64,000 nucleotides of DNA from a bacterium (GCA_049472395.1 JBLIRR010000029.1:3286-67285); one strand, 5' to 3'; positions 2,302 through 50,506 are shown, counted from the first letter of the stretch. Program-made: numbers and translations. Notes: a model not told the origin generated them from the letters alone.

Positions 2302-2952
2302 ATGAAGACAGTATTTGTCAATCCCGAGCGATGTATAGGGTGTAAGCAATGCCAAATTGCCTGCGCAGTGGAACATTCCGAGAACAAGGATATTTACAGT
2401 GCTGTTTTTGAGCCTGTTACTCCTCGTCCTCGCATTCTTGTCGCTCCTGGTTTATATTTTAATACCTCTTTTCCCAATAAATGCCGCCATTGTGATCCGG
2501 CTCCATGTCTGCATGTGTGTCCCACAGGGGCAATCAGCCGGGATGAGGAGCATAATATTGTGTGTGTGGATGGCCGCAAATGCATCACGTGCGCCATGTG
2601 CGCCATGGTGTGTCCTTTTGATGTGCTCACGTTTTATCCCCTCCCCTCAATCAATCCTCAAAAACCAGTAGCACTGAAATGTGACCAGTGTAGTGACCGG
2701 CAGCAACAGGGGAAAGTCCCTGTCTGTGTGGAAGCATGTAAAGTGAATGCGCTCGAATTTGGTGATTTAAATGAATTGATTAAAAAGTCCCGGACTCATC
2801 TCGCCCGCGAAGTATCCGTAGCAGTGGGTGAGATCAAGCCCCCCACAACAAAGGTTCCCGCGCACGTAGAGTCGTGGCGGCAGTGGGGCGAAGCAGTCGA
2901 TAGAATGAATAGTGAAAGAGCAGAGGGAGGCAGTGATGACAATGAGAATTAA
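2302..2952 (+). CDS. cooF: CooF-type 4Fe-4S ferredoxin (electron-transfer subunit of CODH)
   Basis: Four Cys clusters (CIGCKQCQIAC, CRHCDPAPCLHVCP, CITCAMCAMVCP, KCDQC...CVEAC). Overlaps cooS. Confidence 0.9.
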   Translation: MKTVFVNPERCIGCKQCQIACAVEHSENKDIYSAVFEPVTPRPRILVAPGLYFNTSFPNKCRHCDPAPCLHVCPTGAISRDEEHNIVCVDGRKCITCAMCAMVCPFDVLTFYPLPSINPQKPVALKCDQCSDRQQQGKVPVCVEACKVNALEFGDLNELIKKSRTHLAREVSVAVGEIKPPTTKVPAHVESWRQWGEAVDRMNSERAEGGSDDNEN

Positions 2953-4861
2953 TAAAGACAGAGTAAATAGTCTGAGCATACATGAGGATGCCAAGGATAT
3001 GCTTGAGCGAGCATATGAGGAAAATATAGAGACAGTATGGGACCGTTTGAAAACTCAAGAGCCCCAATGCGGCTATTGTGCTCTTGGATTAAGCTGTCGT
3101 AACTGCTCCATGGGCCCTTGCCGTATTGATCCCTTTGAAGAGACCGGCCCTAAAAAAGGCATTTGTGGTGCTGATGCTGATATCATAGTCGCCAGAAACC
3201 TTGCGAGAACCATTGCCGCAGGCGCCTCAGCTCATTCCGACCATGGGCGCGATATACTCGAAGCCCTGTATCACACAGGGTGTGGAACCACATCCTCTTA
3301 CGAAATTACCGACCCAGACAAATTGAAAAATCTTGCTAAGGAATATGGTGTGACAACGGATGGTAAGGATATTCAGGAAATCGCCAAGAACCTTGCATGG
3401 GAGATGATGGAAGAGTTCGGAATACGCAGGGAAGAGTTGACGTTTGTCAAGAGGGCCCCCGAAGCAAGACGGGCGGTATGGGAAAAACTGGGAATCATAC
3501 CAAGAGGCATTGACAGGGAAAATGTGGAAGTGCTCCACCGTACCCATATGGGTGTTGATAATAAGTATGTCAATATTCTGCTCCACGCCATGCGCACCGC
3601 GCTTTCAGATGGCTGGGGCGGGTCACTCATTGCGACCGAGCTTTCCGATGTCCTCTTCGGTACTCCCAAGCCCATTACCTCAAAGGTGAATCTGGGCGTG
3701 CTAAAAGCAGATGAAGTCAATATTGCACTGCATGGCCACAATCCGATGCTCTCTGATGTCATTGTGAGGGCAGCGGAAGATAAAAAGCTCCTCAAGCTTG
3801 CAAAAGACAAGGGCGCGCATGGCATAAACCTGGTAGGGCTGTGCTGTACGGGGAACGAGCTTCTTATGCGACGAGGGATCCCCATGGCGGGGAATCATCT
3901 CATGCAAGAATTGGTTATCATGACAGGGGCCCTTGAGGCAATGATTGTTGATTATCAGTGCATTATGCCTGCAGTTACAAATGTTGCCAGGTGTTTCCAT
4001 ACAAAGGTAATTTCCACCTTTGATAAGGCGAAGTTTAAGGGAGCCACCCATATATCCTTTGATCCGGCGCATGGTATGGAGATCGGGGCAAAGATAGTCC
4101 GCATGGCGATTGAAAATTATAGTAACCGGGTACCGGAGCGCGTTCATATCCCAGGAAAGCCGGTGGATATGATGGCGGGATTCTCTGTGGAGGCAATTGT
4201 CGGGGCTCTTGGGGGCAGTCCTGAACCCCTTGTCAATGCCATCAAAGAGGGGAAAATTCGAGGTGCGGTAGGCGTTGTGGGATGTAACAATCCAAAAATC
4301 CGTCAGGATTATGCCCACGTTACTCTGACGCAACGGCTCATAGAAAAAGATATACTGGTTGTGGTAACCGGCTGTGCGGCAGTGGCTAACGGGAAAGCGG
4401 GTCATATGATGCCACAGGCATCAGAGATGGCAGGACCCGGGCTTGGAGCAGTATGTAAAAGTTTAGGGATTCCCCCCGTGCTCCATATGGGATCATGCGT
4501 TGATAATACACGTATTCTTCTCCTAGGGGCAGCATTGGCAAATTTCCTCGGTGTGGATATGTGTGATCTTCCTCTTGCCGGGGCAGCGCCTGAGTGGTAC
4601 TCGGAGAAAGCCGTCTCTATCGGCACCTATATAGTTGCCTCCGGTATTTATACGGTATTGGGAGTACAACCTGCCATTTTTGGCAGTCCCAATGTAGTAA
4701 AATTATTGGCAGAAGGACTTGAAGACGTGGTGGGGGCAACCTTTGCCGTTGAGCCGAACCCTGAACGGGCGGCTGTTCTTATACAGCGTCATATTGAAAA
4801 GAAACGAAAGGCATTAGGATTGTCCCATATTGATCCGGCTTCAATCCCTATGCCTTCATAA
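2936..4861 (+). CDS. cooS: Anaerobic Ni-dependent carbon monoxide dehydrogenase catalytic subunit (start probably 2936 or 2942 after GGAGG; ORF track starts at 2912)
   Basis: B-cluster CRNCSMGPC...GICG; C-cluster ligands HGHNP, GLCCTGNE, DYQC, GCNN, TGC, HMGSCVDN; catalytic AHSDH and EKA. Confidence 0.97.
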   Translation: MTMRINKDRVNSLSIHEDAKDMLERAYEENIETVWDRLKTQEPQCGYCALGLSCRNCSMGPCRIDPFEETGPKKGICGADADIIVARNLARTIAAGASAHSDHGRDILEALYHTGCGTTSSYEITDPDKLKNLAKEYGVTTDGKDIQEIAKNLAWEMMEEFGIRREELTFVKRAPEARRAVWEKLGIIPRGIDRENVEVLHRTHMGVDNKYVNILLHAMRTALSDGWGGSLIATELSDVLFGTPKPITSKVNLGVLKADEVNIALHGHNPMLSDVIVRAAEDKKLLKLAKDKGAHGINLVGLCCTGNELLMRRGIPMAGNHLMQELVIMTGALEAMIVDYQCIMPAVTNVARCFHTKVISTFDKAKFKGATHISFDPAHGMEIGAKIVRMAIENYSNRVPERVHIPGKPVDMMAGFSVEAIVGALGGSPEPLVNAIKEGKIRGAVGVVGCNNPKIRQDYAHVTLTQRLIEKDILVVVTGCAAVANGKAGHMMPQASEMAGPGLGAVCKSLGIPPVLHMGSCVDNTRILLLGAALANFLGVDMCDLPLAGAAPEWYSEKAVSIGTYIVASGIYTVLGVQPAIFGSPNVVKLLAEGLEDVVGATFAVEPNPERAAVLIQRHIEKKRKALGLSHIDPASIPMPS

Positions 4862-4882
4862 TCTATATATGCTCGTGAGGAG

Positions 4883-6124
4883 TTGCTGATGAAGACCATA
4901 ATTATCGGTGCGGGGCCTGCTGGTGTCACGGCAGCAGAGACCCTGCGTCAGCATAAAATGAGGGGTGATATCACATTGCTCTCGAACGAACCCTCCCCAC
5001 CCTACTCTCCCCCTGCGATGATTGAATATTTTATGACTGGAAAGGAGGCGCACCTTTGGAGATGGCGGGATATTCAAAAAAAGCTCTCTCTTCATTATAA
5101 ATCCGCCGTGCAGGTCAATGAAATAAAACCAGAAAAACGCGAGATCAGGCTCTCAACCGGCGAGACCCTTTTCTATGACAATTGTGTGATAGCAACGGGA
5201 AGTCAACTCTATGCTCCCCTTGAAGGAGCGCAGATGAAGGGTATCTATAATTTTAAATCCCTCTCTTCTGCTGATGAGCTTGTGGGAAAAATCAATAAAG
5301 GTTCTGCAAAGAGCGCACTCATTGTGGGTGCGGGTTTTATCGGGATTGAGATAGCGCTGCTACTCTGCCACCTCAAGGTCAAGGTTACAGTAATCGATAT
5401 GGCAGAGCGTGTCATGCCCGCAATGCTTGATAAAGAAACAGCAGGAATCGTTTTAGGTTTACTGCGCGAGCGTGGTATCACTCTCCGGCTTAATACCAAG
5501 GCGGTGAGATTTATTGGAGATTCACATGCAGAGGGCGTAAAGCTTGACACGGGCGACACCCTCAAGGCAGATATCACTATTGCTGCCACAGGAGTAAAGC
5601 CGAATGTGTCTTTCCTTAAAGGATCAGGGATACAGGTAAACTGGGGGATAATAACTGATGAGTATCTTCGTACCACCATACCTCACATATATGCTGCAGG
5701 AGATGTCGCTGAAACTCACCATCGTATTACGGGTGAGCGCACTGTCTATCCCCTCTTTCCTAATGCTGTGAATCAAGGACGAACGGTTGCCTATGCCATG
5801 CTCGGATGGGATATGCCCTATGAAGGGGCTGAGAGGATGAATAGTCTTAAGCATTTAGGGCTTCCCATAATCGCTGCAGGCCATATGAAAGGCGAGGCAC
5901 TGCGGGCTCATCAGGATAACACCATGCGGACCGTATACGTGCAGAATGGCCGTATTGTTGGCTTTCAATTAGCCGGAGATATCAGAGGCGCAGGGATCTA
6001 CCGCACATTGATGAATAAAAAGGTCGATGTGAGCCCCTTTCAGGCCGATCTTTTGACAAAGTCTTCTCTTTCAAGGATACTATTCTCGTTCTCTCCCCAG
6101 GCATATTCACCTTCATGGCAATGA
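4883..6124 (+). CDS. FAD-dependent NAD(P) oxidoreductase (FNOR; NirB/rubredoxin reductase family)
   Basis: IIGAGPAG and IVGAGFIG Rossmann motifs, ATGS and IYAAGDVAE. Usual third gene of cooF-cooS-FNOR loci. Confidence 0.9.
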   Translation: MLMKTIIIGAGPAGVTAAETLRQHKMRGDITLLSNEPSPPYSPPAMIEYFMTGKEAHLWRWRDIQKKLSLHYKSAVQVNEIKPEKREIRLSTGETLFYDNCVIATGSQLYAPLEGAQMKGIYNFKSLSSADELVGKINKGSAKSALIVGAGFIGIEIALLLCHLKVKVTVIDMAERVMPAMLDKETAGIVLGLLRERGITLRLNTKAVRFIGDSHAEGVKLDTGDTLKADITIAATGVKPNVSFLKGSGIQVNWGIITDEYLRTTIPHIYAAGDVAETHHRITGERTVYPLFPNAVNQGRTVAYAMLGWDMPYEGAERMNSLKHLGLPIIAAGHMKGEALRAHQDNTMRTVYVQNGRIVGFQLAGDIRGAGIYRTLMNKKVDVSPFQADLLTKSSLSRILFSFSPQAYSPSWQ

Positions 6125-8692: not shown

Positions 8693-9979
8693 TCATTTAA
8701 TCCGTTGGATAGTCTTATAAAGATCCGTTTCTTTCCCTCTATCCCAATCATTATATACTAAGCGCGAAAGATCAGGCGACAGGGGCAGGGATGTAAGATG
8801 GTTTTCCTTATATATCGCTACTACTTTGGATGAATACTTTTCACACAGCCAGCACTCTTTAGGCGTTTCAAAATAACTCCTCATCTTTTTATAAATAGTG
8901 CTGAATTTATCCTCAGCAATATTTCCAAAGGATATATTGAGAAATTCACACGGCTGCACATCACCCTTGGCATTGATGTAAAATCGATCCGTGCCTCCTG
9001 CGGTGCATCCGAAAACCTCAGGGTCCTCTTCTATTATTTGGGCTGAAATGGATGGATACTCTTTATATTCTTTGCTATGGTTATATGTATTGACAAGGTT
9101 TTTGACGTGGCGAATATCATCTGGGGTAAAATTATCCGCACCGCTCTCCAGCCATCCACCTGCCGGCTTAGGTTTTATGAGCTGCACAATAGAGGCATTA
9201 TAGTTGTGAGCGCACTTCATTATTTCCTGGAACGTCCCATCATAAAAGGATTCTTTTAAAAGGCACGTATTAAATGTCACGGGAATATTCAGTGCATGAC
9301 ACACACTGATCCCATGTTCCATAATACTCCAGGCATCCTTATATCCCATGAATCTATTAAATTCATCCGGTTTATAGCTATGGAGAGAAAACATACACGC
9401 GGTAATGTGGGGAAGCTGCGCCATTTTTTCTTTAGACATGCCATACCCCGTGGAATTTATCCATATCTCGGACCTCTCATCAATAGCATCACACACTAAT
9501 TTCACACGATCAAATACTAAAAAGGGCTCACCCCCTTCGATATTATAAAAAGCTATTCCCATATCCTGCAGCTCCTTTATGGTCTTAACCAATATGGCGA
9601 TCTCCACATCTTTGCCCAGATCATTTTTTTGATAACAATGACAGCAGTGATACGCACAGGCAGAAGTCACTGATACTAATACCGTGGTACAGGGCAATTT
9701 TTCATCAAAGGTCATAAACTTTTTGCAAGCGGTATAAAAGGCGGGAGAGGGATAACCCGGTACATAAAGATCAATACGGGCATTTCCCTTTAGTCTGACA
9801 AATTTATTGTGCTGCATCTTTTTAAGAAAATAAAGAAGTCTTCGCAAAAATGCAACAAAGCTTTTTACGCTTATCGCGCCGGTCACCACACACGGAATAA
9901 AATGACAGAGCACGCGTATTTTAATCTTTACATTCAGTATGCTCTTATGAATTCCTGTGATATTCTTCGATCTTTTCAT
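8693..9979 (-). CDS. Radical SAM protein with SPASM/twitch domain
   Basis: CAYHCCHC (CxxxCxxC), GGEP, GCTAGGTDRFYINAKGDVQPCEF. Confidence 0.9.
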   Translation of the reverse strand: MKRSKNITGIHKSILNVKIKIRVLCHFIPCVVTGAISVKSFVAFLRRLLYFLKKMQHNKFVRLKGNARIDLYVPGYPSPAFYTACKKFMTFDEKLPCTTVLVSVTSACAYHCCHCYQKNDLGKDVEIAILVKTIKELQDMGIAFYNIEGGEPFLVFDRVKLVCDAIDERSEIWINSTGYGMSKEKMAQLPHITACMFSLHSYKPDEFNRFMGYKDAWSIMEHGISVCHALNIPVTFNTCLLKESFYDGTFQEIMKCAHNYNASIVQLIKPKPAGGWLESGADNFTPDDIRHVKNLVNTYNHSKEYKEYPSISAQIIEEDPEVFGCTAGGTDRFYINAKGDVQPCEFLNISFGNIAEDKFSTIYKKMRSYFETPKECWLCEKYSSKVVAIYKENHLTSLPLSPDLSRLVYNDWDRGKETDLYKTIQRIK

Positions 9980-11013
9980 ATATAGCCATTTTCTTTATAC
10001 CAGGTAACCGTCCTCTCAATACCCTCGTGCAAGGAATAATGATTCACAAAACCCAATAATTCTTTGGCCTTTGCAGTCGAATATTCACAATTATCATAGA
10101 ACATATTTATTCTCCCGCGGGTTAATAGAGGCGGATTTTTCGCACCCATAATGCTCCATAGCAATTCTAGCATAAATCCGATGGGATACACCATGGCTTT
10201 CGGCAGGTTCTTAGGTTTTTTAATATGTGCTGCCCTGCAGAGTAATGAGTAGAATGTATCCATATAGTCTATATTTTGGTTTCCGATAATAATCCTGTGA
10301 ATGCCTGAGAGTTTTTTTTCAAAGGTTACATAGTAGGCCCTGGCCAAATCTTTGGCATATATTACATGCAGTTTATTGCCTTTTGATCCCGGCACATGGG
10401 AGAGTGTGTGCGCACATTTCAGATACTCATAGAATCCGGTATGAAATTCTCGTTCTCCGTAAACCCAGACCGGCTCAAGTATGGTACAATTAAGACTAAA
10501 GTGCTTCGCACAGTGTATGGCTTCCTGGGTGGCAATTCTTTTCGTGTCGCGATAATAATTAAACATGCTGGGAAATATCTTATCTAAAAAATAAGGATAA
10601 TGGGACCTATAGGGCGAGCGTTCATCTTTCACCTCTTTTGAATCTTCTTCCCCATACACGGAGATGGAGCCAGTAATAATTAGATTTTTAATCTTATTTT
10701 TTACACAAGCCTTTAACACATTGAGTGTTCCATTCACATTTGTTTCATAAAATTGCTTATAGTGCCCCCAATCCCTCACAAAGCCCGCCGTATGAATTAT
10801 AAAATCACACTCTTCGAATGCCTCGATCAAGGAGCGTTCATCCCTTATATCACCATATCGAAATGCGACTCCACGCTCTTTTATGAAGGACACATCACTG
10901 GTTCTGCGCACAAGGCAGACCACTTTCTGATTTTTGTCACAGAAATGCTGCACAATATGACTGCCTATAAATCCCGTTGCTCCGGTGATTAGAATTTTAT
11001 TCTGTCTACTCAT
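9976..11013 (-). CDS. Extended SDR, NAD-dependent epimerase/dehydratase (3-beta-HSD-like)
   Basis: ITGATGFIG, HTAG, NVNGT, YxxxK (YRDTK). Confidence 0.9.
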   Translation of the reverse strand: MSRQNKILITGATGFIGSHIVQHFCDKNQKVVCLVRRTSDVSFIKERGVAFRYGDIRDERSLIEAFEECDFIIHTAGFVRDWGHYKQFYETNVNGTLNVLKACVKNKIKNLIITGSISVYGEEDSKEVKDERSPYRSHYPYFLDKIFPSMFNYYRDTKRIATQEAIHCAKHFSLNCTILEPVWVYGEREFHTGFYEYLKCAHTLSHVPGSKGNKLHVIYAKDLARAYYVTFEKKLSGIHRIIIGNQNIDYMDTFYSLLCRAAHIKKPKNLPKAMVYPIGFMLELLWSIMGAKNPPLLTRGRINMFYDNCEYSTAKAKELLGFVNHYSLHEGIERTVTWYKENGYI

Positions 11014-12271
11014 ATCGGGTTAATAACACGGCAGCATTATGTCCGCCAAAACCAAATGATGAGGAAAGGGCATAGTGGATGTCGCTATTAATGCTCGTAT
11101 CGACGAGGTTAAGGTCCTCCATCGGATTATCAATTATGTTACCATGAATTCTTGATTCTTTAATGGAGTAAGCGGTCACTGCTATCTCTATCGCACCGCT
11201 TGCCCCAATGCTGTGCCCGAGTATCCCCTTTGTACTATTAAGGTAAGGCTGCGTTGACCTGCTGCCAAAAATTTCCTTTATTATCAGCGCCTCGACGTCA
11301 TCATTCAGTATAGTGCCTGTACCGTGCGTATTTACATAATCAATCGTATAATCCTTTACTATACTCCGTAAGAGCTTTTTTAAGCTTTTCCCTGTTCTGT
11401 CCATGTGCACAATATGAGAGGCGTCGCTATTAGCCTTATAATCAATAATCTCTGCGTAAATTTGTGCCTTGCGGATTTGAGCATGCTCTAACTCTTCAAG
11501 CACCAACATACAAGAGGCGCCCTCTGAGAATAAAAATCCCGAACGATTTTTCGAAAATGGCATGGGACTGCCATCATGGGCGTGAGTAAGGACTGATAAC
11601 ACATCAAAGCCCCGCATAATGGAGCCGGAGTCATCTTCAAGACACTCTGCGCCTCCGGCTAACACTACCTTCTGACGGCCATTCACTATCGCCTCATAGG
11701 CCTCACCCACCGCCATCGTCCCCGATGCACACGACGCATTGATGGTATAATTCACGCCATGTAATCCGAATAGTATTGATATCCAGGCTGAGAGAGCGTT
11801 GGGCATTATTATCGGTATCACCATTCTGTTAAAACTCTTGAGGTTTTTATCATTATGTGCATCGCCCTTGTGAAGATGCGAGACATAAGAGTGAAAGGCT
11901 ACCTGCAACTCACTCAAACCAACCCCTATAATCACCGAACACTCATCATCAAGACCATCGGTGAAAAATTTACTATTTACCTCCTTGATTTCATACCCTG
12001 CATCTAAAAGAGCGAGCTTCGCTCCCACGAGCGCACTCAGGGTATTCTTCCCCATCATTTTTGTGAGGGAAGGTGACATGCCATACTCAGGAAAGTAGAG
12101 ATCGGGAAAGGGCACATAATGGGTGGATTTATAATTATACCTCTCCTTCAAGGTATCAGGTATTTTTTTACAGCACATGGTATGGGTATATAAGTTTTTA
12201 AAAAAGGCATCTTTTCCTATTCCGATTGCCGTGACCGGTCCAATGCCTGTGATAACCGCCCTTCTTTTCAT
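11006..12271 (-). CDS. Beta-ketoacyl-ACP synthase (FabF-type ketosynthase)
   Basis: VITGIG, active-site ASCASG, HGTGT, KGILGHSIGASG, SSFGFGGHN; Cys-His-His triad intact. Confidence 0.92.
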   Translation of the reverse strand: MKRRAVITGIGPVTAIGIGKDAFFKNLYTHTMCCKKIPDTLKERYNYKSTHYVPFPDLYFPEYGMSPSLTKMMGKNTLSALVGAKLALLDAGYEIKEVNSKFFTDGLDDECSVIIGVGLSELQVAFHSYVSHLHKGDAHNDKNLKSFNRMVIPIIMPNALSAWISILFGLHGVNYTINASCASGTMAVGEAYEAIVNGRQKVVLAGGAECLEDDSGSIMRGFDVLSVLTHAHDGSPMPFSKNRSGFLFSEGASCMLVLEELEHAQIRKAQIYAEIIDYKANSDASHIVHMDRTGKSLKKLLRSIVKDYTIDYVNTHGTGTILNDDVEALIIKEIFGSRSTQPYLNSTKGILGHSIGASGAIEIAVTAYSIKESRIHGNIIDNPMEDLNLVDTSINSDIHYALSSSFGFGGHNAAVLLTRYE

Positions 12272-12324
12272 ATTGTTTTATTCTTTGTTTTTTATTCTCA
12301 CACAAAACCTTAACGCCGCACAAC

Positions 12325-13341
12325 CTAATATTCTCCTATCAATTTTTCGGCCCACTTAATCAAATCCTTCAGATAAAGCTCTGCCGTCGGATAATCTCGC
12401 GCCCGTATAGTACACGCGCTCAAATCTATTTTATTTCCCTCATCATAGAGAATTTTTATGTAAGGATCATGAGTTTCGCCAATCTTAATAAAACTTACTC
12501 CCTGCTCCATGGCCTCTTCTCTCAGGTGTGTTTCGTTATGCGGGCTCACCGTAAAAAGAAGCTCATATTCGCCGGCTTCTGCGAGAAATAATAGGATTTT
12601 TGTCAAAGAGAGCATTTCTGAAATGCGCACACCTGCATCACTATACGGAAGGTGTGTGAGTATATAGCCTAGAGCGCTCATTTCAGACAGGGTAGCTAAG
12701 GCATTAAATACACCGTCACTGGTATCAATACAGGATGAGGCATATTTACGGATCAATTCCGCCTCTTTTATCCGCAGATGAAATCTATGTGGCGCCCTTG
12801 CCCTGCGGGTATCTTTGAGGGCCGATGCATATAATTTCAGAACTGCTTCAACATTACCCGTGCCGATCGGGCCTGTAATGTAAATTGCTTCCCCTTGCAG
12901 GGCCGTGCTTCTTAACAGCGGTGTGCGCTCGATGCTGCCAATCACGGATGCGGTATATCTCCATGTTTTTCCTATTCCCAGATCGCCCCCCATAAATTCA
13001 GTATTGCAGCGCCTTAACACCTCTGCGATGCCTTGTGAAAATTTTTTTACATACTCCTCATTCCAGTGCTCTGCCATTACTGTGCTATGGGCATACAACA
13101 TGGGCTTACCGCCGCTTGCGAAAATATCGCTTATGGCACCGACAGCACAATTCCATCCGAGCGCATAAGGGTCATGATCCTGAAAAAAATCCTCCTCAGA
13201 AAAATCATCAATCGTAAAGAGCATAGGTTCGTTCTTGAATTTTATAACCTCAGCATCTGATTCAAATAACCGATTACCTTTAGAGTGCGCGATCGGCATA
13301 CATGAGTTTATTACTTCAATCAGTTTTTTTTCTTTATCCAT
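12325..13341 (-). CDS. ThiL/PurM-superfamily ATP-dependent kinase (thiamine-monophosphate kinase-like); start probably 13341, ORF track gives 13371
   Basis: AISDIFASGG, GGD, IDTSDG, GEYELLF motifs. Confidence 0.75.
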   Translation of the reverse strand: MDKEKKLIEVINSCMPIAHSKGNRLFESDAEVIKFKNEPMLFTIDDFSEEDFFQDHDPYALGWNCAVGAISDIFASGGKPMLYAHSTVMAEHWNEEYVKKFSQGIAEVLRRCNTEFMGGDLGIGKTWRYTASVIGSIERTPLLRSTALQGEAIYITGPIGTGNVEAVLKLYASALKDTRRARAPHRFHLRIKEAELIRKYASSCIDTSDGVFNALATLSEMSALGYILTHLPYSDAGVRISEMLSLTKILLFLAEAGEYELLFTVSPHNETHLREEAMEQGVSFIKIGETHDPYIKILYDEGNKIDLSACTIRARDYPTAELYLKDLIKWAEKLIGEY

Positions 13342-13360
13342 AAATAAATCATCCTCCGGA

Positions 13361-14329
13361 TTATTCAACAATAATATCCAACATATCGCGGGCCATTTCT
13401 ATTTTACACGGCAAATACCCTGCTGCAGGATCTCCGTCAAATTCAATTCGAGGATTTGTTACATTGCCATAGATCTCAATCCCGCGATTATAGCGAAGAG
13501 AAATCACCTCATTATTCTTTATTTCATCACCCCTATAGAGCATCTTAAGAATAGACCACAGATTCACATAATTCACATTTCGCACTATCATAGTATAAAA
13601 ATATTCCCTATTATCTGCGAGCGTATGTTTAATCTTTAAACCTGATGCTATATAATATGACCTTCCCACTGAAATATTATATACCCTTTTTGCCACCTCA
13701 CGCTTCTCATCTGCATACAGGGTAAAATCCCCTGGGCAGTAAGAGAGAAGTGATCTTAATAATGAAAAGAGGGTGCCGGTATAATCACCGAAGATATTCC
13801 GCATGCCGGTATTTGCATAATGGGCAATCATAGGTCCCATGCCGAAATTCGCGCAGAGGGCAAAATACCTGCTTTCTGTATTGTTACAGTGTGCAATCGA
13901 TTCTTTATGAAGCCTTTTATCAAAATCCTGCGCATAGGTAATCTTGCCTATCGGGATGCGCTGTATTTTATTATGAATCAAGGCGTCTACCGCGCTTTTT
14001 CTGCGCAAAGGAATGTGGTAATTTTTGCAAAAATCAGGGCTTGTTCCTGTATATATGACCCCGAGTGCGGCATGGGAGATCCTGCGGCCTTCTTTATCAT
14101 AAAATCCATTTAACACTCGGTTTATTGTCCCATCCCCGCCTACTGCAACTATACTATCATAGCCCTGCCTATTGCCTTGGGCTGATAATGAATATGCCTC
14201 ATCAAGATCTTTGGTCACGGCATATTCATACTCTATGCTGCACCATTTCAAAAGATGTTGTAGTCTAGCAAATGATTTTTCTGATGCGCCACTGCGCGAA
14301 CCCGGGTTAAGGATAAAAAAATATTTCAT
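13361..14329 (-). CDS. Diacylglycerol/sphingosine kinase family protein
   Basis: ILNPGSRSG, VAVGGDGTINRVLNG, GTSPDF (GTGNDF-like), EFDGD. Confidence 0.88.
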   Translation of the reverse strand: MKYFFILNPGSRSGASEKSFARLQHLLKWCSIEYEYAVTKDLDEAYSLSAQGNRQGYDSIVAVGGDGTINRVLNGFYDKEGRRISHAALGVIYTGTSPDFCKNYHIPLRRKSAVDALIHNKIQRIPIGKITYAQDFDKRLHKESIAHCNNTESRYFALCANFGMGPMIAHYANTGMRNIFGDYTGTLFSLLRSLLSYCPGDFTLYADEKREVAKRVYNISVGRSYYIASGLKIKHTLADNREYFYTMIVRNVNYVNLWSILKMLYRGDEIKNNEVISLRYNRGIEIYGNVTNPRIEFDGDPAAGYLPCKIEMARDMLDIIVE

Positions 14330-14332
14330 ATG

Positions 14333-15511
14333 CTACGAAGGTGTTAAATTTTTAAAAATAGTAAGGGCCCTGTCCAGTGATTCTTCTTTCAGATGAGCGC
14401 CTGCGATCAATCTTATACTGCCTCTATTGGGAGGAACAGAGGGAGGAATAAAGGCTGTACCTACTATCTGCATCTCATATAATCGTTTGGCCAATGAAAT
14501 AGTAGCATCGACAGAGCCGGTTATAATAGAGGTAATCGGAGCTTCGGACGTGGCTAATACATATCCGCACTCAGACAGGCATTCTGTAATCATCTTTTTA
14601 TATCTCCACATCCTTTGAGATAATGGGGTAAATTCATCCCTTACAATATCCACAACCTTATCTATCCCTGCGAGCACTCCGGGTGATAAGGCGGTTGAAT
14701 AAATCAAATGAGGCAAATAATAACGAAGATAATTAATAACCTTTCTCTTGCCGCAGATAACCCCGCCCATATTTGCAAAGGCCTTTCCCAATGAAGCAGT
14801 ATAGATTCCATTAAACTCTTTTATGCTCTGCTCTTCGAGAATACCCCGCCCCCCTCTGCCAATCACGCCGATTCCATGTGAGTCATCTATAACCAATATT
14901 GCATTATATTTATCACACACTCTCACCATATCACTCACCGGTGCAATAGAGCCTTCGGTTGAGAAAACTGACTCAGTGACAATGAAAATCTGTCTGTACC
15001 CGGCAGACTTATTCAGAATCTTTTCCAAAGAATGGATATTATTATGAAGGAATGGCCTAATCTTACAGCCCACATTTATAATGCCCTGCACCAGGGATGA
15101 ATGGGCATAGTGATCAACGATGATCAGATCATCTTTATTGGCGATTATGCTGAACACACCATTATTCGTCTGATAACACGAAGGCAATAAGAGTGCGTCC
15201 TCTAAACCGATAAAATCAACAAGCTTGTGCTCTACACGCTTATATAAACTCACATACCCGGTTGCAATGGGCGTTCCGCACATGGAAGCGCCATACCTCT
15301 CAACGGTCTGTATGATCGCCTGTTTTACCCTTTTATCGCACGCCAATCCAAGATAATTATTCGACGCAAGATCAATACAATGTCTGCCATCCACAATGAG
15401 GGGATCTTCTATACCTGATTCAATCAGACGATAGTAAGGATTAAAGTGGTGCCTGGCCACTATGGATTCATCAAGTTCAAATCGCTTATAAAATTCCGTC
15501 AACGTATCCAT
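14333..15511 (-). CDS. Alpha-oxoamine synthase (serine palmitoyltransferase / AONS family, PLP)
   Basis: LASNNYLGL, HSSL, FLHN, ESVFSTEG, DDSHGIG, SLGK (PLP lysine), PPSVP. Confidence 0.9.
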   Translation of the reverse strand: MDTLTEFYKRFELDESIVARHHFNPYYRLIESGIEDPLIVDGRHCIDLASNNYLGLACDKRVKQAIIQTVERYGASMCGTPIATGYVSLYKRVEHKLVDFIGLEDALLLPSCYQTNNGVFSIIANKDDLIIVDHYAHSSLVQGIINVGCKIRPFLHNNIHSLEKILNKSAGYRQIFIVTESVFSTEGSIAPVSDMVRVCDKYNAILVIDDSHGIGVIGRGGRGILEEQSIKEFNGIYTASLGKAFANMGGVICGKRKVINYLRYYLPHLIYSTALSPGVLAGIDKVVDIVRDEFTPLSQRMWRYKKMITECLSECGYVLATSEAPITSIITGSVDATISLAKRLYEMQIVGTAFIPPSVPPNRGSIRLIAGAHLKEESLDRALTIFKNLTPS

Positions 15512-15515
15512 ACCT

Positions 15516-15752
15516 TTAGACCTTGAGATATTTTTCCTTTAATGTAACAATTATGTCAGATACTGTGCGCATTTCCATCAAATCATTATCATCAATAGCA
15601 ATAGAGAATTCATCTTCGCATTCATTCACAATCATTATCATGGAGAATGAATCGACATTCAAATCCTCTATTAATCTGCTCTCACGCGTTATTGCAATCG
15701 GAGTCTCAAGATTAGACTTGATAATGGAGATAATTTTTTCTTCTACATTCAT
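15516..15752 (-). CDS. Acyl carrier protein
   Basis: 78-aa acidic protein with DLNVDSFS phosphopantetheine serine and EDEFSIAI. Confidence 0.9.
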   Translation of the reverse strand: MNVEEKIISIIKSNLETPIAITRESRLIEDLNVDSFSMIMIVNECEDEFSIAIDDNDLMEMRTVSDIIVTLKEKYLKV

Positions 15753-15767
15753 TGTTCCCTCCCCTGT

Positions 15768-16973
15768 CTATGAGGTGTTCCTCCAGCAGTGAGTAGGATT
15801 AGGTGAATCGCACATAATAGTGCACATGTTACAATTCACACATTGAGAAGTATATCCGGGGTCATTTCTTAATTTTATTACAAGATCGCGCTCACAGACA
15901 AATGGTCTGCACATGCTCACAAAATCGAGAGCTTCTCTTTTGAGCACATCATCCATCTCTCCTCTCTTTCTAAAACCCCCCACACACATTATGGGTATAC
16001 GAGAATGCTCTTTGGCACACCGTGCAGACTCAAGATTATACATCGGAAAAAAGGGTCTGATCTTTATCTTTAAAAAGGGATATACACACAGCTTCCATAA
16101 AATTTTACCCAAGGGATTATTAATCTTGTAAATCGGGTTATGCGCGAGAATAAGATCTAATGGTATATCACCCCGAATGATATTTAAGGCATGATCCATA
16201 GTGCCGTAGCTTATTTCTATAGCAGCTAATTTTTTGGCATTAAGGAACCTAATGAGAGCGATAAATTGGTCTTTTGAAAATTTTTTAGTATAATCATCAC
16301 TTGCACTCACTTTAATGAGCAAGGGAAAATCATCCCCACACCTCTCCCTAATCTTATCAATAATCATCTCTAAAAATGTTGTGCCTATCTTCTTGGTTTC
16401 ATCCACTTTAAAAAGATCTGTTCTTGTATTTATTGAGGGGAGTAAAAACTGATGAATAAGATAACCGTGCCCTGCATGAAGCTGTACACCATCAAAACCC
16501 GCTTCTTTAGCATATACGGCCGAGTCGGCAAAGGAATCTATTACACCTAATGCCTGGTCTGTCGTGAGTTTTTGGGGTTTATGCCTGAAATAAAAAGAAG
16601 GCATCCCTGATACACCCCATACAGTCCCGTGAGTAGCCTCTCTTCTTGTTTGCCGCCCGGCGTGGGCAAGTTGGACAAATATTCTGCTCCCATATTCATG
16701 TACCTGATCAACAATGGATTTGTAAAAAGGGATCTTCTCCGAATTGTCAAGCCCTGCTTGATTCGGCTGCATAGCCCTCCCGCCGGGACAGATATACACA
16801 AATCCCGTAATAATTGTTCCCACTTCAAAGCGCGCAAGATCACGATAGAGCTTTTTATAGGCATCAGTAGGAAATCCATGTGTATCTGCCATGCCTTCAT
16901 AGGTGGCAGATCTCACAATTCTATTTTTTACTCCCCATGGTCCTAATCGGGCTTGTTCAAATAATTCCACCAT
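15768..16973 (-). CDS. NADH:flavin oxidoreductase (old yellow enzyme family)
   Basis: KNRIVRSAT, QLAHAG, AGFDGVQLHAGHGYLIHQFL, C-terminal CVNCNMC. Confidence 0.92.
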   Translation of the reverse strand: MVELFEQARLGPWGVKNRIVRSATYEGMADTHGFPTDAYKKLYRDLARFEVGTIITGFVYICPGGRAMQPNQAGLDNSEKIPFYKSIVDQVHEYGSRIFVQLAHAGRQTRREATHGTVWGVSGMPSFYFRHKPQKLTTDQALGVIDSFADSAVYAKEAGFDGVQLHAGHGYLIHQFLLPSINTRTDLFKVDETKKIGTTFLEMIIDKIRERCGDDFPLLIKVSASDDYTKKFSKDQFIALIRFLNAKKLAAIEISYGTMDHALNIIRGDIPLDLILAHNPIYKINNPLGKILWKLCVYPFLKIKIRPFFPMYNLESARCAKEHSRIPIMCVGGFRKRGEMDDVLKREALDFVSMCRPFVCERDLVIKLRNDPGYTSQCVNCNMCTIMCDSPNPTHCWRNTS

Positions 16974-17962
16974 TATCCCTGTGCATTTGAATGCAGATCA
17001 AAGATAAACCCTACAAAAATATAAGATACAATAAAGAGAATAAGCGCCAACTCTGTATTAAACAACGCTATCAGAGCCGCCTCACCGCAAATACAGGCCC
17101 TAAAGTTGGTTGCTAATGAATAATAGGTTTTTTTACCCACAGGATTAAAATAATATAAAACCCCTGTCCATATCTGGAGGAATACGGTTAATAATCCAAG
17201 AATCAAAAAGACCATATTAATCGACGCCTCGATAAATCCATTGGCATAGATGGCGACAAACGCGATTGAAGGAAGAAAAGCGCAGAGTATTGCGAGAACT
17301 CTTGATTTTTCAATGCCATACTGGACCACAATGGTATTCTTGAAGGCAGCTTTATCACCATGATAATCCTTAAAATAGGTGTAAAAAGTCATTAATCCAT
17401 TTAAGATCCAGACTATGATGAGCACTGATACGCGGCTTGAGGTAAAATAGGGAGACTGGGTTGGCCCTGAGGCAAGAAATCCATAGACCGAACAGAGGGT
17501 AATCATTAATCCGAAGGTTATATTTCCAAGAATGCCATACCCTTTAGCATATTCATATACAACATTAAGAATCACGCCCAAGATTAAAGGGATAATGGCA
17601 ATTGGTTCAAGATAAAACCAGGTCACAATGGCAGAGATGATGAGCAGGAGAAATGAAAGGAGAAGACCGTAAATGGGATTAAGCTCACCTGTGACCATAG
17701 GACGCTGAGGCGCATTTATCCTATCCTCTTTAAGTCCGAGAAAATCATTTATAATCTGATTGATCCCCCAGCTTAAAAAGAGCAGCAGAAGGATCACACC
17801 CTCTTTTTCAACCGTAGGGGTTACCTCAACCGTCTGATACTGAGATTGTGAAATATATACATAAAAAGCAAGGCCAAGCCACCCTGCAATACCGGTCACA
17901 AATGAATAATATAACCGCATTGACTTTATATACGATTTGAAAAACCTCACTATCTGTGCCAT
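16973..17962 (-). CDS. UbiA-family prenyltransferase (integral membrane)
   Basis: INDFLGLKEDRINAPQRP (NDxxDxxxDxxN variant), KDYHGD second motif, ~8 TM segments. Confidence 0.85.
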   Translation of the reverse strand: MAQIVRFFKSYIKSMRLYYSFVTGIAGWLGLAFYVYISQSQYQTVEVTPTVEKEGVILLLLFLSWGINQIINDFLGLKEDRINAPQRPMVTGELNPIYGLLLSFLLLIISAIVTWFYLEPIAIIPLILGVILNVVYEYAKGYGILGNITFGLMITLCSVYGFLASGPTQSPYFTSSRVSVLIIVWILNGLMTFYTYFKDYHGDKAAFKNTIVVQYGIEKSRVLAILCAFLPSIAFVAIYANGFIEASINMVFLILGLLTVFLQIWTGVLYYFNPVGKKTYYSLATNFRACICGEAALIALFNTELALILFIVSYIFVGFIFDLHSNAQG

Positions 17963-18579
17963 GCCATTTCCCCCCCCTTTACTCCATTGGACACGCGATG
18001 AAAAAGAACATATATAATTATATTATACATACAGATCATAGCACATTCTCAGATTTATTTCAGGAATGATCGTGAATGCTAAAATATATTCTAAAAAGAA
18101 GGAATAAACCGATGCACATGAGAGTCTGGTGTGGCTCGGGCTGCGGATTCAGCTAATTTCCTTAAGGCTCTTCCTCAATGTATGTTGGGGAAACCTCACC
18201 TGATAGAATAGATACTCCTACCTGATCACAGATAGTATCTGTGCTATTGCTGCCAGGAGAAGACACTCAATCAGAAGCTACAAGCATCTTGCAAGCAATA
18301 GAAGGTAATTTTAATAGAATCTTTAAAAAAAATTTAAATGAGAATATAAATATGAAATAATTCTTTTTGAATTAATCTCTAAGAAAAATGCCTCATTCCC
18401 CAGGTCTTAGATCAGTATAATTTTTTTATATAAGGAACTCTATCAATCTATATGGTTATATATATATATGATGAGATGAAGAAGCCTTGAGCTAAAAGTT
18501 AAAAGGAGGAAATGCTTATAAGGATTTAAAACATGTATTTAGATTGTATCTTGACGTTTATAAAAAAAGAAGTAGCGAT

Positions 18580-24531: not shown

Positions 24532-25878
24532 TTATAACGTTCTTCCCAATTTTGTATACTCACGTTTTATTCCATCAATCAAGTCATTGTATGTAATATA
24601 CACCATATTATTTGAAACTGCCATCAGGGTGGCATAACGAACAACATTTACTATGGAACCACCTGCAATATCATATTTTTTTGCTATCTCTTTTAGGTCT
24701 ATTGCATCGTCTAATACTACCCTATCTGTAAATGCTCCCTGCCAGATACGCAGCCTTTCCTCCTCAGTAGGCATGGGAAAAAATACAATGGATTGAAAAC
24801 GCCTGGTAAATGCTTTATCAAGATTGCCCTTTAAATTAGTTGCAAGAATAACCATATTACTGCACATCTCTATACGCTGCAGCAAATATGCTGTTTCCTG
24901 GTTTGCAAATCTATCATTTGAGCTTCCGATTTTTGTTCTTTTTCCAAATAGTGCATCCGCCTCATCAAAGAATAATATCCAATCATGATTTTCCGCACTA
25001 TTAAATATTTTTTCCAGGTTCTTTTCTGTCTCACCAATATATTTTGATACCAGCTGTGAGAGATCAATCCGGTACACCGGCTTTTCAACTTTTTTGCCTA
25101 TCAGGGCTGCAGTGAGGGTTTTCCCTGTTCCTGGTGGTCCATAAAATAGAGCCCTGTATCCGGCCTGGATATTTTTACCCATATTTAATTCTTCTATAAA
25201 TTTTTTGCCATGCTCTGGCCACGCGAGAAGCTCTTTGAGATTAAAGTGTGTTGATTCACACAAAACAAGATCTTCCCACTCCATCAGCGTGGTGAGTTGG
25301 CGCGCAGGAAAATCAACGCTATACTCATAGTGTATATCTTCACCGGTCATAATATAGCTCAATGCACTGTCACTTAAACACAAGAGCTTGTTTGTCGCGG
25401 GATTGCCTTCATCTGATTTTAGTTGTCTAAGAATATTTTCTTTCAATAATTTATTCGTTTTATCAAACAACCGTGCATATTTCATCTGTGAACTTATCTG
25501 ATGTCCTGCTAACAAAAAATAAGCGGTTTTCAATGTGGGCAGAAATCCGTTAAAATTATGTAAATTCATTCCCCCGAACTCGGTAAAGGTTTTATCAAAA
25601 GTTCGATTTCGAATAAGAAATTCATCTAACAGCTCAGGTTTAATCTCCGGCGCCAGGGCTAATAGCACAACCTTCCGTTCATCTTGAGTAAGGTCATGAC
25701 TTTTTACAAAGGTAGAATAAAATGTATTTATATCAGAAATGTCGAAAGGATCCGATTCTTGATACGTTTCTTTACCACCCTCAAGATAATCTTTTATTCT
25801 GTTAATAATAATTGTATGCAGCCATTGCATATCCTTTTCAATTAGTTGTGCATTTTCTTCTATTTTAGTCATCATCAT
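24532..25878 (-). CDS. eCIS AAA+ ATPase (Afp15/Pvc15-like)
   Basis: GPPGTGKT, ILFFDEADALFGKRT, VSKYIGETEKNL, DRFANQETAYLLQRIE. Confidence 0.93.
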   Translation of the reverse strand: MMMTKIEENAQLIEKDMQWLHTIIINRIKDYLEGGKETYQESDPFDISDINTFYSTFVKSHDLTQDERKVVLLALAPEIKPELLDEFLIRNRTFDKTFTEFGGMNLHNFNGFLPTLKTAYFLLAGHQISSQMKYARLFDKTNKLLKENILRQLKSDEGNPATNKLLCLSDSALSYIMTGEDIHYEYSVDFPARQLTTLMEWEDLVLCESTHFNLKELLAWPEHGKKFIEELNMGKNIQAGYRALFYGPPGTGKTLTAALIGKKVEKPVYRIDLSQLVSKYIGETEKNLEKIFNSAENHDWILFFDEADALFGKRTKIGSSNDRFANQETAYLLQRIEMCSNMVILATNLKGNLDKAFTRRFQSIVFFPMPTEEERLRIWQGAFTDRVVLDDAIDLKEIAKKYDIAGGSIVNVVRYATLMAVSNNMVYITYNDLIDGIKREYTKLGRTL

Positions 25879-27214: not shown

Positions 27215-27808
27215 TCAGTCGTTCACTTCCTTTAAATTAGAATCTGTCCCTATTTCTTGAGTATTCGCCACTTCACTTACTATATCCATTTCAAATACAG
27301 CGAGCATTCTGACCCTATAAATCACTGAAGGCAAATAACGCAATCCTATCATACTCCAGATGTAATGCTGCTGTTCCAAGCCCAATGTGTTTAACTCAAA
27401 CACAAGTTTTGATGTATCTAAATTGTTCATGTCAGGTGTGTTATCATTATCAAACACGGGCTTTGTCTGAAAACATGCAAGAATGTATGAAATATGTTTC
27501 AAACTTTCGCTATAATTGTTAAAATATGCGGTAAACATTAACTGCAAGTTTAAGTTCACAGGTGGACTTACAAAACTGGTATGGCTTTCTGCCTTATCTG
27601 TTGCTACCAAACCTGCGGCCTTTAAAGATTTTTCCTCTTCAATATTTAACAAACTTAATCCCACACTATCTTCCGGGATTGCGACTATTCCATTATCATC
27701 AACAAAGGATGTAAGCACAACCCTGTCGTTTATTGGAGCTTCACCTAATTTTTTCCCTATAAAATCATTAACTTCTTTTCTAATCACTTCTAAGATTTCA
27801 TCAATCAT
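27215..27808 (-). CDS. eCIS tail terminator/cap (Afp16/Pvc16, DUF4255)
   Basis: LSLLNIEEE, PPVNLNL, YSESLK, FQTKPVF, IWSMIG.RYLPSVIYRVRM. Confidence 0.9.
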   Translation of the reverse strand: MIDEILEVIRKEVNDFIGKKLGEAPINDRVVLTSFVDDNGIVAIPEDSVGLSLLNIEEEKSLKAAGLVATDKAESHTSFVSPPVNLNLQLMFTAYFNNYSESLKHISYILACFQTKPVFDNDNTPDMNNLDTSKLVFELNTLGLEQQHYIWSMIGLRYLPSVIYRVRMLAVFEMDIVSEVANTQEIGTDSNLKEVND

Positions 27809-50113: not shown

Positions 50114-50506
50114 CTAGTATAAATAAAGAGGATACACAATATTTTGTGCGCTATTTATAGTTTTAACTGTATAATCTATATTTATTAACAATAAATGTGC
50201 TTCTTCTTCCGATTCCGTAATCTCAATTTTTTGTACATCTATTCTCGGTTCATACAAATAAATTGCATCTAAAATCATTTGCTGTATCTCTATAACCAGT
50301 GCATTATTGATTTCTTCAAACATAAATTTTTTTAGGTCGCAGCCAAAATCAGGATAATATAACCGTTCCTGTATTGCTGTTGAAAAAATTATTTCTAATG
50401 ATTCTTTTATATCATCCGCATCTGAAACAAGTTGTATATCCTTTCCATTATTGTAAAATTGCGGTGGAAATCCCCAACCAGTGCCTAAAAATTCACTGTT
50501 TCCCAA
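50114..50506 (-). CDS. gp25/GPW baseplate wedge (Afp9-like)
   Basis: FLGTGWGFPPQF, DIKESLEIIFST...ER...DFGC, YEPRI, VYPLYL; TTG start after an AAGGAGAGG RBS. Confidence 0.93.
   Translation of the reverse strand: MGNSEFLGTGWGFPPQFYNNGKDIQLVSDADDIKESLEIIFSTAIQERLYYPDFGCDLKKFMFEEINNALVIEIQQMILDAIYLYEPRIDVQKIEITESEEEAHLLLINIDYTVKTINSAQNIVYPLYLY

Follow-up and report, generated by a model that had tools for sequence, protein, structure and literature searches.

A conserved nine-gene bacterial operon with a six-enzyme core and a possible role in building a phosphorylated, sphingosine-like membrane lipid

We describe here an operon of nine genes on the minus strand (positions 8693 to 17962) of a 64,000-nucleotide stretch of bacterial DNA (GCA_049472395.1, JBLIRR010000029.1:3286-67285), which comes from a 6.5-Mb assembly of 103 contigs and to which, at its full length, we refer as the window. 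These nine genes are one conserved, self-contained operon, and its variants in other genomes reduce it to a core of six enzymes: an alpha-oxoamine synthase (AOS), an extended short-chain dehydrogenase/reductase (SDR), a lipid kinase of the diacylglycerol kinase (DAGK) type, a ThiL-like kinase, a UbiA-superfamily transferase and a radical SAM enzyme, with a ketosynthase (KS), an acyl carrier protein (ACP) and an OYE-type ene-reductase as accessories. Our reading, to which we assign a probability of roughly 0.4, is that the operon builds a membrane-bound amino-alcohol lipid in which a phosphorylated sphingosine-like base is joined to a second hydrophobic chain.

All nine open reading frames (ORFs) are intact and lie at exactly the coordinates given in an earlier reading of this DNA (the initial annotation), whose list of nine overlapping or abutting gene families is borne out by the ORF calls and Pfam matches. 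Going from position 17962 down to 8693, the order is UbiA, OYE, ACP, AOS, DAGK, ThiL-like kinase, KS, SDR and radical SAM enzyme, and the genes are tightly spaced: the first pair overlaps by 1 nt, the next three pairs stand 15, 4 and 3 nt apart, then come an 11-nt overlap and a 53-nt gap, and the last two pairs overlap by 8 and 4 nt. A purine-rich stretch precedes the ATG at 17962 that starts the UbiA gene, and the ThiL-like gene starts with TTG, with an alternative ATG possible 10 codons inside. The presumed promoter region is the 581-bp intergenic region upstream of the operon (17963 to 18543), which ends at a divergent ORF beginning at 18544. Scanning for promoters and terminators gave no useful signal, with 40 promoter-like sites compared with 34.5 ± 5.3 in shuffled sequences, and the operon is not set apart by base composition.

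Conservation was followed through the ThiL-like protein, which, used as a query, yielded 2,899 candidates, 457 of them at E ≤ 1e-10. The best 120 of these 457 homologues are 45-53% identical to it, many of them from Desulfosporosinus, other Bacillota and Omnitrophota, and the names that such proteins bear in public records are "thiamine-phosphate kinase" and "AIR synthase related protein". An alignment of 16 homologues was used to scan 185,579 species genomes, where 260 stretches matched and 217 encode a ThiL-like relative; our locus counts rest on the best 80, whose gene content was determined by tblastn with all nine window proteins. All nine genes are present in 54 of these 80 loci. Among the 52 loci of at least 15 kb, nine genes are found in 47, eight in 4 and seven in 1, and in each of them the cassette keeps to one strand, the median span being 9,291 bp. 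The synteny that the initial annotation had put forward as a check is thus conserved elsewhere. Gene order is also largely kept: of 51 loci of this length with eight or nine genes, 39 share the window's order, 8 have a rotated order (ThiL-KS-SDR-rSAM-UbiA-OYE-ACP-AOS-DAGK, where rSAM stands for the radical SAM enzyme), and 4 are one gene short, with all nine genes being present in both the window-order and the rotated sets.

At least 14 phylum-level labels occur among the 80 kept loci, the records being labelled as Bacillota, Omnitrophota, Bacteroidota, Cloacimonadota, Spirochaetota, Latescibacterota, Acidobacteriota, Verrucomicrobiota, Fibrobacterota, Fusobacteriota, Desulfobacterota, Calditrichota, Sumerlaeota, Mcinerneyibacteriota and one "Proteobacteria" bin; the carriers are anaerobes and include cultured, non-pathogenic Desulfosporosinus species (for example, D. 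nitroreducens, D. lacus and D. hippei) and Petroclostridium (sp. X23). We built a FastTree phylogeny from the six concatenated core proteins (2,144 columns), covering the window and those 55 of the 80 loci in which each of the six reaches ≥80% coverage, the remaining 25 being excluded. Grouping in the tree is by phylum, with the 26 Bacillota forming one clade and the 9 Omnitrophota another, and the window is sister to L031 (support 99), its top identity to any other member being 57%. Given this phylum-wise grouping and identities of at most 57%, the window copy is an old, divergent lineage of the cassette and no recent import from a sampled donor.

The self-contained nature of the operon is apparent from its surroundings. 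When 525 flanking ORFs of 67 loci were clustered, no conserved flanking enzyme gene emerged, and no transporter, glycosyltransferase, N-acyltransferase or acyl-ACP synthetase was found to travel with the cassette. Families that recur in 5 to 8 loci are sensor kinases, chemoreceptors, carbonic anhydrase, a VTT-domain protein, a Fic protein and a NicO-type transporter. The commonest neighbour, present in 15 loci (L004-L048; for example, L006:4678-5136), is a helix-turn-helix (HTH) regulator, roughly 150 aa long, in which an N-terminal HTH_3/HTH_19 domain is combined with a conserved C-terminal region that has no Pfam match. It lies a median of 7 nt upstream of the UbiA gene; those examined are all from Bacillota, and the window cassette does not have it. 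We regard it as a candidate ligand-sensing regulator of the operon. Insertions within some cassettes are uninformative, consisting of TPR or outer-membrane proteins, gene fragments and unannotated ORFs.

The division into core and accessory genes comes from cassettes that lack some of the nine. KS is absent from four standard loci (L041, L046, L064 and L076) and OYE from two (L051 and L065). Elsewhere in the four KS-less genomes, the best KS match reaches 34-36% identity, as expected of FabF, in three and is a partial one of 45% in the fourth; for comparison, cassette KS orthologues are 40-55% identical. Two divergent architectures go in the same direction. The metagenome locus L096, found with the fusion protein P0122 (below), reads AOS-UbiA-rSAM-DAGK-ThiL-SDR, with 21-37% identity to the window proteins, and neither KS, ACP nor OYE was detected in it. 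The acidobacterial locus L099 reads UbiA-rSAM-DAGK-ThiL-OYE-AOS-SDR, with KS absent and ACP undetected, and its genome is one of 2 matches among 401 sampled Acidobacteriota genomes. From these natural gene losses and the L096 and L099 architectures, the core is AOS, SDR, the DAGK-type kinase, the ThiL-like kinase, UbiA and the radical SAM enzyme, and KS, ACP and OYE form an accessory module that would serve chain supply or tailoring. This division agrees with the chain-building role proposed earlier for KS, ACP and OYE, as exactly these three are dispensable in the variant cassettes. We also note that in L096 a gene with ferredoxin and nitroreductase domains (L096:12760-13553) follows the SDR gene where OYE is absent.

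Adjacency and gene fusions connect the core enzymes further. The DAGK and ThiL-like genes adjoin in every architecture, and UbiA and the radical SAM gene adjoin in the rotated order, in L096 and in L099; in the window's order these two stand at opposite ends of the operon and are adjacent only cyclically. The fusion protein P0121 (764 aa, 28 member sequences) carries AOS at residues 21-405 followed by DAGK at residues 450-760, P0122 (676 aa, 3 members) carries DAGK at residues 1-300 followed by the ThiL-like enzyme at residues 346-672, and L065 holds a fused AOS-DAGK ORF. No UbiA fusion was found among the longer proteins, which is weak evidence. The fusions indicate that AOS, DAGK and the ThiL-like enzyme are functionally linked, and they support a progression from amino-ketone or amino-alcohol to monophosphate and on to diphosphate.

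The AOS (14333 to 15511, 392 aa) is a pyridoxal phosphate (PLP) enzyme by its Pfam match (Aminotran_1_2, 8.2e-40) and has its highest NCBIfam score with bioF (TIGR00858, 294.7 against a cut-off of 426.45), followed by Kbl (266.6 against 460). It lies below the cut-offs of all three serine palmitoyltransferase (SPT) models (NF047600, 251 against 640; NF047599, 203.6 against 500; NF047603, 170.2 against 670), and its matches in the PDB are KBL (1fc4, 6.9e-56), SPT (3a2b, 2.1e-50) and BioF (1bs0, 5.9e-47). The catalytic set of the superfamily is present, with the PLP lysine K243 and residues H137, D209, D210, H212 and R367 being invariant in 37 of 37 sequences. Our analysis points to serine as the most likely amino-acid substrate, since the DAGK-fold kinase that is fused to AOS needs a hydroxyl group, which serine would supply. 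A CFB-type SPT scoring over its cut-off was found in none of five cassette-bearing Bacteroidales genomes, which says little. The SDR (9976 to 11013, 345 aa) has a 3-beta-HSD/epimerase fold (Pfam Epimerase, 5.2e-36; 3Beta_HSD, 3.2e-26), its nearest NCBIfam models are HpnA (139.3 against 367.65) and the 2-alkyl-3-oxoalkanoate reductase OleD (123 against 580), and it matches 3wj7 in the PDB at 6.3e-25. Judged by sequence, its nearest relatives are reductases of long-chain lipid ketones such as OleD.

Of the two kinases, the DAGK/sphingosine-kinase-fold enzyme (13361 to 14329, 322 aa; Pfam DAGK_cat, 2.6e-21, and YegS_C) has DgkB (2qv7, 2.3e-13) as its best PDB match and keeps the motif G64-G65-D66-G67-T68 in 36 of 36 sequences. 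The ThiL-like PurM-fold ATP-dependent kinase (12325 to 13371, 348 aa; Pfam AIRS, 4.4e-15) scores 139.7 against the thiL model TIGR01379 (cut-off 184.15), with SelD (60.6 bits) and HypE (35.6 bits) far behind, and its PDB matches follow the same order (ThiL 3mcq, 2.9e-18; SelD, 1.7e-06; HypE, 6.8e-06). Residues D39, E41, D55, D82 and D130, as well as D216-T217-S218-D219-G220, are invariant in 16 of 16 sequences, and we take the D-x-S-D-G motif to have a catalytic role. ThiL itself turns a primary alkyl monophosphate into a diphosphate. As a separate observation, the ThiL-like protein of L096 (10859-11788) reads DTSGG at the position where all 16 aligned main-clade proteins read DTSDG.

Taking these scores into account, we considered whether the run could be a chance or misannotated collection of biotin (BioF), thiamine (ThiL) and fatty-acid (FabF, ACP) paralogues, as might be suggested by the public name "thiamine-phosphate kinase" and by BioF being the top NCBIfam match of the AOS. 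However, none of the nine operon proteins reaches a curated NCBIfam cut-off, the nine genes stay together across phyla, and the window genome has a true ThiL elsewhere (292.9 bits, over the cut-off, on contig C11) as well as a true BioF directly beside BioB (445.2 bits, likewise over the cut-off, on contig C93). We therefore reject this explanation, which retains next to no probability. The initial annotation had held that its case would fall if the PLP enzyme grouped with BioF and the kinase with true ThiL; with the genuine enzymes located on other contigs, and with both operon proteins below the respective cut-offs, neither objection applies.

The three accessory enzymes would be able to supply or modify an acyl chain. 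The FabF-type KS (11006 to 12271, 421 aa; Pfam ketoacyl-synt N and C) scores 273.8 against a fabF (TIGR03150) cut-off of 493.75, and C181, H316 and H353 are conserved among 68 sequences, this Cys-His-His set marking an elongating, decarboxylating KS. The dedicated ACP (15516 to 15752, 78 aa; Pfam PP-binding, 1.1e-08) reaches 50 against an NCBIfam cut-off of 71 and has a D33-S34 attachment motif conserved in 63 sequences. The OYE-type FMN ene-reductase (15768 to 16973, 401 aa; Pfam Oxidored_FMN, 6.8e-46, residues 3-241) has FadH (1ps9, 2.8e-30) and YqjM (1.9e-29) as its best PDB matches, and both H166, H169 and Y171 and a C-terminal Cys-rich motif of Fe-S type (C378-x2-C381-x2-C384-x3-C388...C396) are conserved among 64 sequences. 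It ends at residue 401 without the C-terminal FAD/NAD(P)H domain of the full FadH/2-enoate-reductase architecture, such that the FadH-like barrel must take its electrons from a partner. Overall, the enzymes look active, to judge by the catalytic motifs kept in AOS, KS, OYE, the ThiL-like kinase, DAGK and the radical SAM enzyme.

The UbiA-superfamily membrane transferase (16973 to 17962, 329 aa) is assigned by Pfam (1.4e-20, 74.1 bits against a cut-off of 34.2), and its best NCBIfam equivalog score is 61.3 against 269. Its nearest relative is the archaeal digeranylgeranylglyceryl phosphate synthase (DGGGPS): the DGGGPS models NF009521 and NF009522 score it at 51.5 (cut-off 296) and 44.2 (cut-off 353), and the DGGGPS structure 6m31 is its only sequence match in the PDB (7.4e-06). 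An AlphaFold2 model (pLDDT 92.1) is helical throughout and has the nine-helix UbiA fold, and Foldseek again places 6m31 first (E 2.2e-08, TM scores of 0.60/0.68), followed by archaeal UbiA homologues and then by the membrane phosphoribosyltransferase 8j8j (E 8.4e-04); the fold match 4od4 has TM scores of 0.68/0.80. Motif 1, N72-D73-x-L75-G76-x-x-E79-D80, is invariant in 36 of 36 sequences, motif 3 reads K198-D199-x-x-G202-D203, and in an alignment with MjDGGGPS the residues N62, D70, K130, D183 and D187 correspond to N72, D80, K140, D199 and D203 of the window protein. DGGGPS prenylates the hydroxyl group of a one-tailed lipid phosphate, the phosphorylated lipid being the acceptor, according to the available text of PMC9385802. 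An isoprenoid partner is also favoured by a clue from one locus, in that the L096 cassette lies between dxs and ispD, two isoprenoid precursor genes (2696-4552 and 13581-14300).

A quite different product, namely a small heterocycle or cofactor, would follow if KS, ACP and AOS made an amino-diketone that closed to a ring of the hydroxymethyl-pyrrole type (as in prodiginine MBC), which would then be activated as a diphosphate and coupled by UbiA. In its favour, thiamin, folate and methanofuran biosynthesis all activate a hydroxymethyl group first as the mono- and then as the diphosphate, and the cassette does hold a triad of KS, ACP and AOS. A kinase of ThiL type, together with an OYE whose ene-reductase triad is intact, would imply an enone intermediate, and a heteroaryl-methyl diphosphate should be a chemically competent UbiA donor. 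Nevertheless, we consider this route improbable, as it is weakened by cassettes that do without KS and ACP: four standard loci have no KS, three of those four genomes have no cassette-type KS elsewhere, and both divergent architectures keep the other six enzymes with neither KS nor a detectable ACP. In addition, the first kinase has a lipid-kinase fold, the SDR is nearest to long-chain ketone reductases, and the UbiA protein, with helices throughout its model, is an integral membrane enzyme.

The remaining core member is the radical SAM enzyme (8693 to 9979, 428 aa; Pfam Radical_SAM and SPASM), which has a SPASM/twitch-type C-terminal part. Its C108-x3-C112-x2-C115 (CxxxCxxC) motif and C227, C239, C325, C344 and C379 are invariant in 36 of 36 sequences, and in an AlphaFold2 model (pLDDT 92.5) the N-terminal 95 residues form two long helices and short strands. 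The best fold matches are SkfB (Z 22.8), SuiB (21.9), viperin (21.6), PqqE (21.3) and BlsE (20.6), with anSME and MoaA within the same tied range (Z 19.5-22.8), and the tetraether/membrane-spanning lipid synthase GDGT-MAS (7tol, Z 17.0) and BtrN (14.2) lower. Since these top rows are tied and do not discriminate, they assign the protein to the SPASM/twitch group only, and no reaction type follows from them. Searching the ESM Atlas with the model returned generic radical SAM clusters only; one of these is 97-98% archaeal, mostly from Methanobacteriota, and consists of radical SAM/SPASM proteins of approximately 390-408 aa with TM scores of 0.78/0.85 to the model.

A radical SAM/SPASM gene can also mark a cluster for a ribosomally synthesized and post-translationally modified peptide (RiPP), in which case the other genes would decorate a peptide, and the peptide maturases SkfB, SuiB, CteB and PqqE are indeed among the best folds. 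However, among 491 small ORFs taken from the window and from either side of 67 loci, we found no conserved small ORF beside the cassettes that could be a precursor peptide gene and no window ORF that clusters, and those small ORFs that do recur lie in the region of the Bacillota-specific regulator gene. The modeled N-terminal helices do not resemble any obvious peptide-recognition domain, and equally good fold matches (viperin, BlsE, DesII and MoaA) act on small molecules. On these three grounds we reject the RiPP explanation as very improbable.

From the observed gene set and its conservation, core, motifs and fusions, we infer every substrate, the order of the steps from the kinases to the radical SAM enzyme, and the product of the following scheme. 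In a first, accessory step, the module of FabF-type KS, dedicated ACP and Fe-S OYE would supply or tailor an acyl chain. AOS would then make a 3-keto long-chain base by condensing an amino acid, most likely serine, with the acyl thioester, and the extended SDR would reduce the ketone of this base. The DAGK-fold enzyme would then phosphorylate the primary alcohol to the 1-phosphate, and the ThiL-like enzyme would add a second phosphate. The DGGGPS-like UbiA would join this phosphorylated base to a second chain, most likely from a host isoprenoid diphosphate, a step that would take the place of ceramide N-acylation and give a two-tailed lipid without a ceramide synthase, and the radical SAM enzyme would finally carry out oxygen-independent tailoring. 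This scheme retains much of the initial annotation, which is supported by the gene content, by the conserved synteny and by the separation of these enzymes from their housekeeping namesakes. Its relay from monophosphate to diphosphate gains from the AOS-DAGK and DAGK-ThiL-like fusions and from the ThiL-type DTSDG motif, the diphosphate itself being only predicted, and the part that we would revise is its use of the base diphosphate as the UbiA donor, which we rank below an isoprenoid donor.

We note, however, that a number of observations weigh against a phosphorylated sphingosine-like base being joined to a second chain in this way. For the AOS family, the BioF, Kbl and SPT models give roughly equal scores (best E-values among 37 cassette proteins of 8.6e-95, 1.6e-93 and 7.1e-89, respectively), with the window protein below every cut-off. 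The Asp-rich motifs of UbiA are incomplete, as D66 of MjDGGGPS is replaced by Gly76 (36 of 36 sequences) and D180 by a nearly invariant Tyr196, and the corresponding alanine mutants of MjDGGGPS are crippled (PMC9385802, available text). The survey of 525 flanking ORFs shows no gene for a polyprenyl synthase accompanying the standard cassette, and an isoprenoid donor would leave the second phosphate without an explained purpose. The cassette is moreover an accessory trait, since a ThiL-like protein (E ≤ 1e-20) is present in 0 of 40 relatives of the window genome, and the cassette UbiA (E ≤ 1e-60) in 20 of 69 genomes of the D. nitroreducens family (Bacillota). Finally, Desulfosporosinus orientis carries a ThiL-like homologue (P0083), and in the available part of PMC8982180 its core lipids are given as only fatty acids, beta-hydroxy acids and dimethylacetals. 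The product is hence no obvious bulk lipid under the conditions of that study, the method of which would miss long-chain bases.

Some of these observations would be accommodated if the base 1-diphosphate were itself the UbiA donor, transferred to a polyprenyl phosphate, to a lipid hydroxyl or, with ring closure, to an internal nitrogen or oxygen, no isoprenoid being donated. Enzymes of the UbiA family have a single Mg-diphosphate site and the cassette brings a diphosphate route of its own (the ThiL-like kinase and the DAGK-ThiL fusion), no polyprenyl synthase travels with it, the motif carrying Gly76 for D66 and Tyr196 for D180 is non-canonical in 36 of 36 members, and a UbiA-fold enzyme with a non-prenyl donor does exist in the membrane phosphoribosyltransferase 8j8j. 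Such a donor is chemically harder, as the diphosphate is not allylic: a saturated primary 2-amino-alkyl diphosphate cannot form a stabilized cation, and in the available text of PMC9385802 having the proximal double bond saturated (phytanyl diphosphate) makes the diphosphate a dead-end donor. The divergent UbiA of L096, furthermore, keeps the canonical Asp at the Gly76 site, so that the unusual motif is a trait of the main clade that is not tied to the chemistry itself, and the nearest relative, DGGGPS, uses the phosphorylated lipid as its acceptor (PMC9385802, available text). On this analysis an isoprenoid donor is more likely, and we regard transfer of the base diphosphate as unlikely. The assignment we prefer remains a phosphorylated sphingosine-like base that UbiA joins, as acceptor, to a second hydrophobic chain.

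Outside the operon, the window holds several unrelated gene groups. An extracellular contractile injection system that looks complete occupies 21198-55547 on the minus strand, with an AAA ATPase (24532-25878), a Pvc16_N protein (27215-27808), a tape-measure protein (27809-30049), a 2,097-aa Laminin_G_3 protein (30046-36339), a 2,409-aa protein with a Baseplate_J part (42732-49961), gp25 (50114-50506), a VgrG-like spike (50519-52324), tube proteins (52337-52939, 53174-53653 and 53675-54136) and the sheath (54183-55547), all on the minus strand; the region also holds a 1,366-aa protein with no Pfam match. Beyond these genes lies a second, unrelated small radical SAM gene (57652-58530, minus strand, 292 aa), followed at 59171-63982 by a protein of at least 1,603 aa with beta-helix, NosD, PKD and Chlam_PMP repeats that runs off the window end. 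At the other end, the window begins with a fragment of an RHS-repeat protein (1-1494), and a row of genes on the plus strand (2302-6124) encodes a CooF-like 4Fe-4S protein, a prismane/CO-dehydrogenase family protein (604 bits) and a pyridine-nucleotide-disulphide oxidoreductase, which by their families would fit an anaerobic lifestyle.

The enzyme families involved are known; their combination and presumed product are, to our knowledge, new, and the six-enzyme core and the fusions are newly defined here. We found no description of this gene combination in the full-text literature, in line with the initial annotation, which knew of no characterised pathway of this kind, and supplementary locus tables, which the search did not cover, could mention these genes; in a Black Sea sphingolipid paper (PMC11334938) the terms prenyl, radical SAM, kinase, operon and gene cluster do not occur. 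The operon looks like a sphingoid-type lipid pathway with a real, if small, chance of representing a new lipid class. In its most specific form, which we would call conceivable and still rather unlikely, a serine-derived base diphosphate made by a DAGK-fold and then a ThiL-fold kinase would be joined to an isoprenoid by the DGGGPS-like enzyme and tailored without oxygen by the radical SAM enzyme, giving a two-tailed lipid class found across anaerobes. If true, this would be the first non-isoprenoid lipid diphosphate and a third route to a bilayer lipid beside glycerol esters and ethers, in a hybrid of bacterial sphingoid and archaeal-type chemistry. Were the product a prenylated or diphosphorylated sphingoid, it would constitute a new lipid class for anoxic sediments, peat and groundwater, whose biomarkers serve geochemistry, bacteria would be using an archaeal-type UbiA transferase on a non-glycerol backbone, and the PurM/ThiL fold would gain a lipid-phosphate kinase function. 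As cultured carriers exist, the question is directly testable at the bench, and the six-gene core and the fusions cut a reconstitution to six enzymes with a proposed order.

A close counterpart among known systems is the Caulobacter-type ceramide pathway, which comprises Spt, a dedicated ACP, an acyl-ACP synthetase, the epimerase-fold reductase CerR, the ceramide synthase bCerS and a ceramide kinase. The cassette shares with it, and with eukaryotic sphingosine kinase, an oxoamine synthase with a dedicated ACP beside it, an SDR of the epimerase fold that would suit reduction of the 3-keto base, and a lipid kinase of the DAGK_cat fold. It differs in that no ceramide synthase or acyl-ACP synthetase is present in the cassette or in the conserved flanks of the 67 loci covered, in that its AOS fails all three SPT models, and in that it adds UbiA, the ThiL-like kinase, the radical SAM enzyme, KS and OYE. 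Two-step kinase routes to diphosphates are likewise established, in the phytol and phytyl-phosphate kinases, isopentenyl-phosphate kinase, ThiD and MfnE/MfnF, and follow the same logic, in which an alcohol is converted to a monophosphate and then to a diphosphate that is used by a transferase; we know of no such route that employs a pair of DAGK_cat-fold and PurM-fold enzymes, nor of one that acts on an amino-acid-derived long-chain base. ThiL (TIGR01379; 3mcq, 5cc8 and 3c9r) is both the best family and the best PDB match of the second kinase, which keeps the D-x-S-D-G motif and the acidic ATP/Mg residues; the cassette protein differs in scoring below the family cut-off, in coexisting with a separate true ThiL, and in always standing beside a lipid kinase, being sometimes even fused to DAGK. 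DGGGPS (6m31/7bpu), finally, is nearest to the cassette UbiA by sequence and fold, shares several catalytic residues with it, and provides a one-tailed lipid phosphate with its second hydrophobic chain, the role that we propose for the cassette enzyme. The two differ in that the cassette protein falls below the DGGGPS models and has replaced D66 and D180, and in that its presumed acceptor would be the phosphate or diphosphate of an amino alcohol in place of a glycerol phosphate ether.

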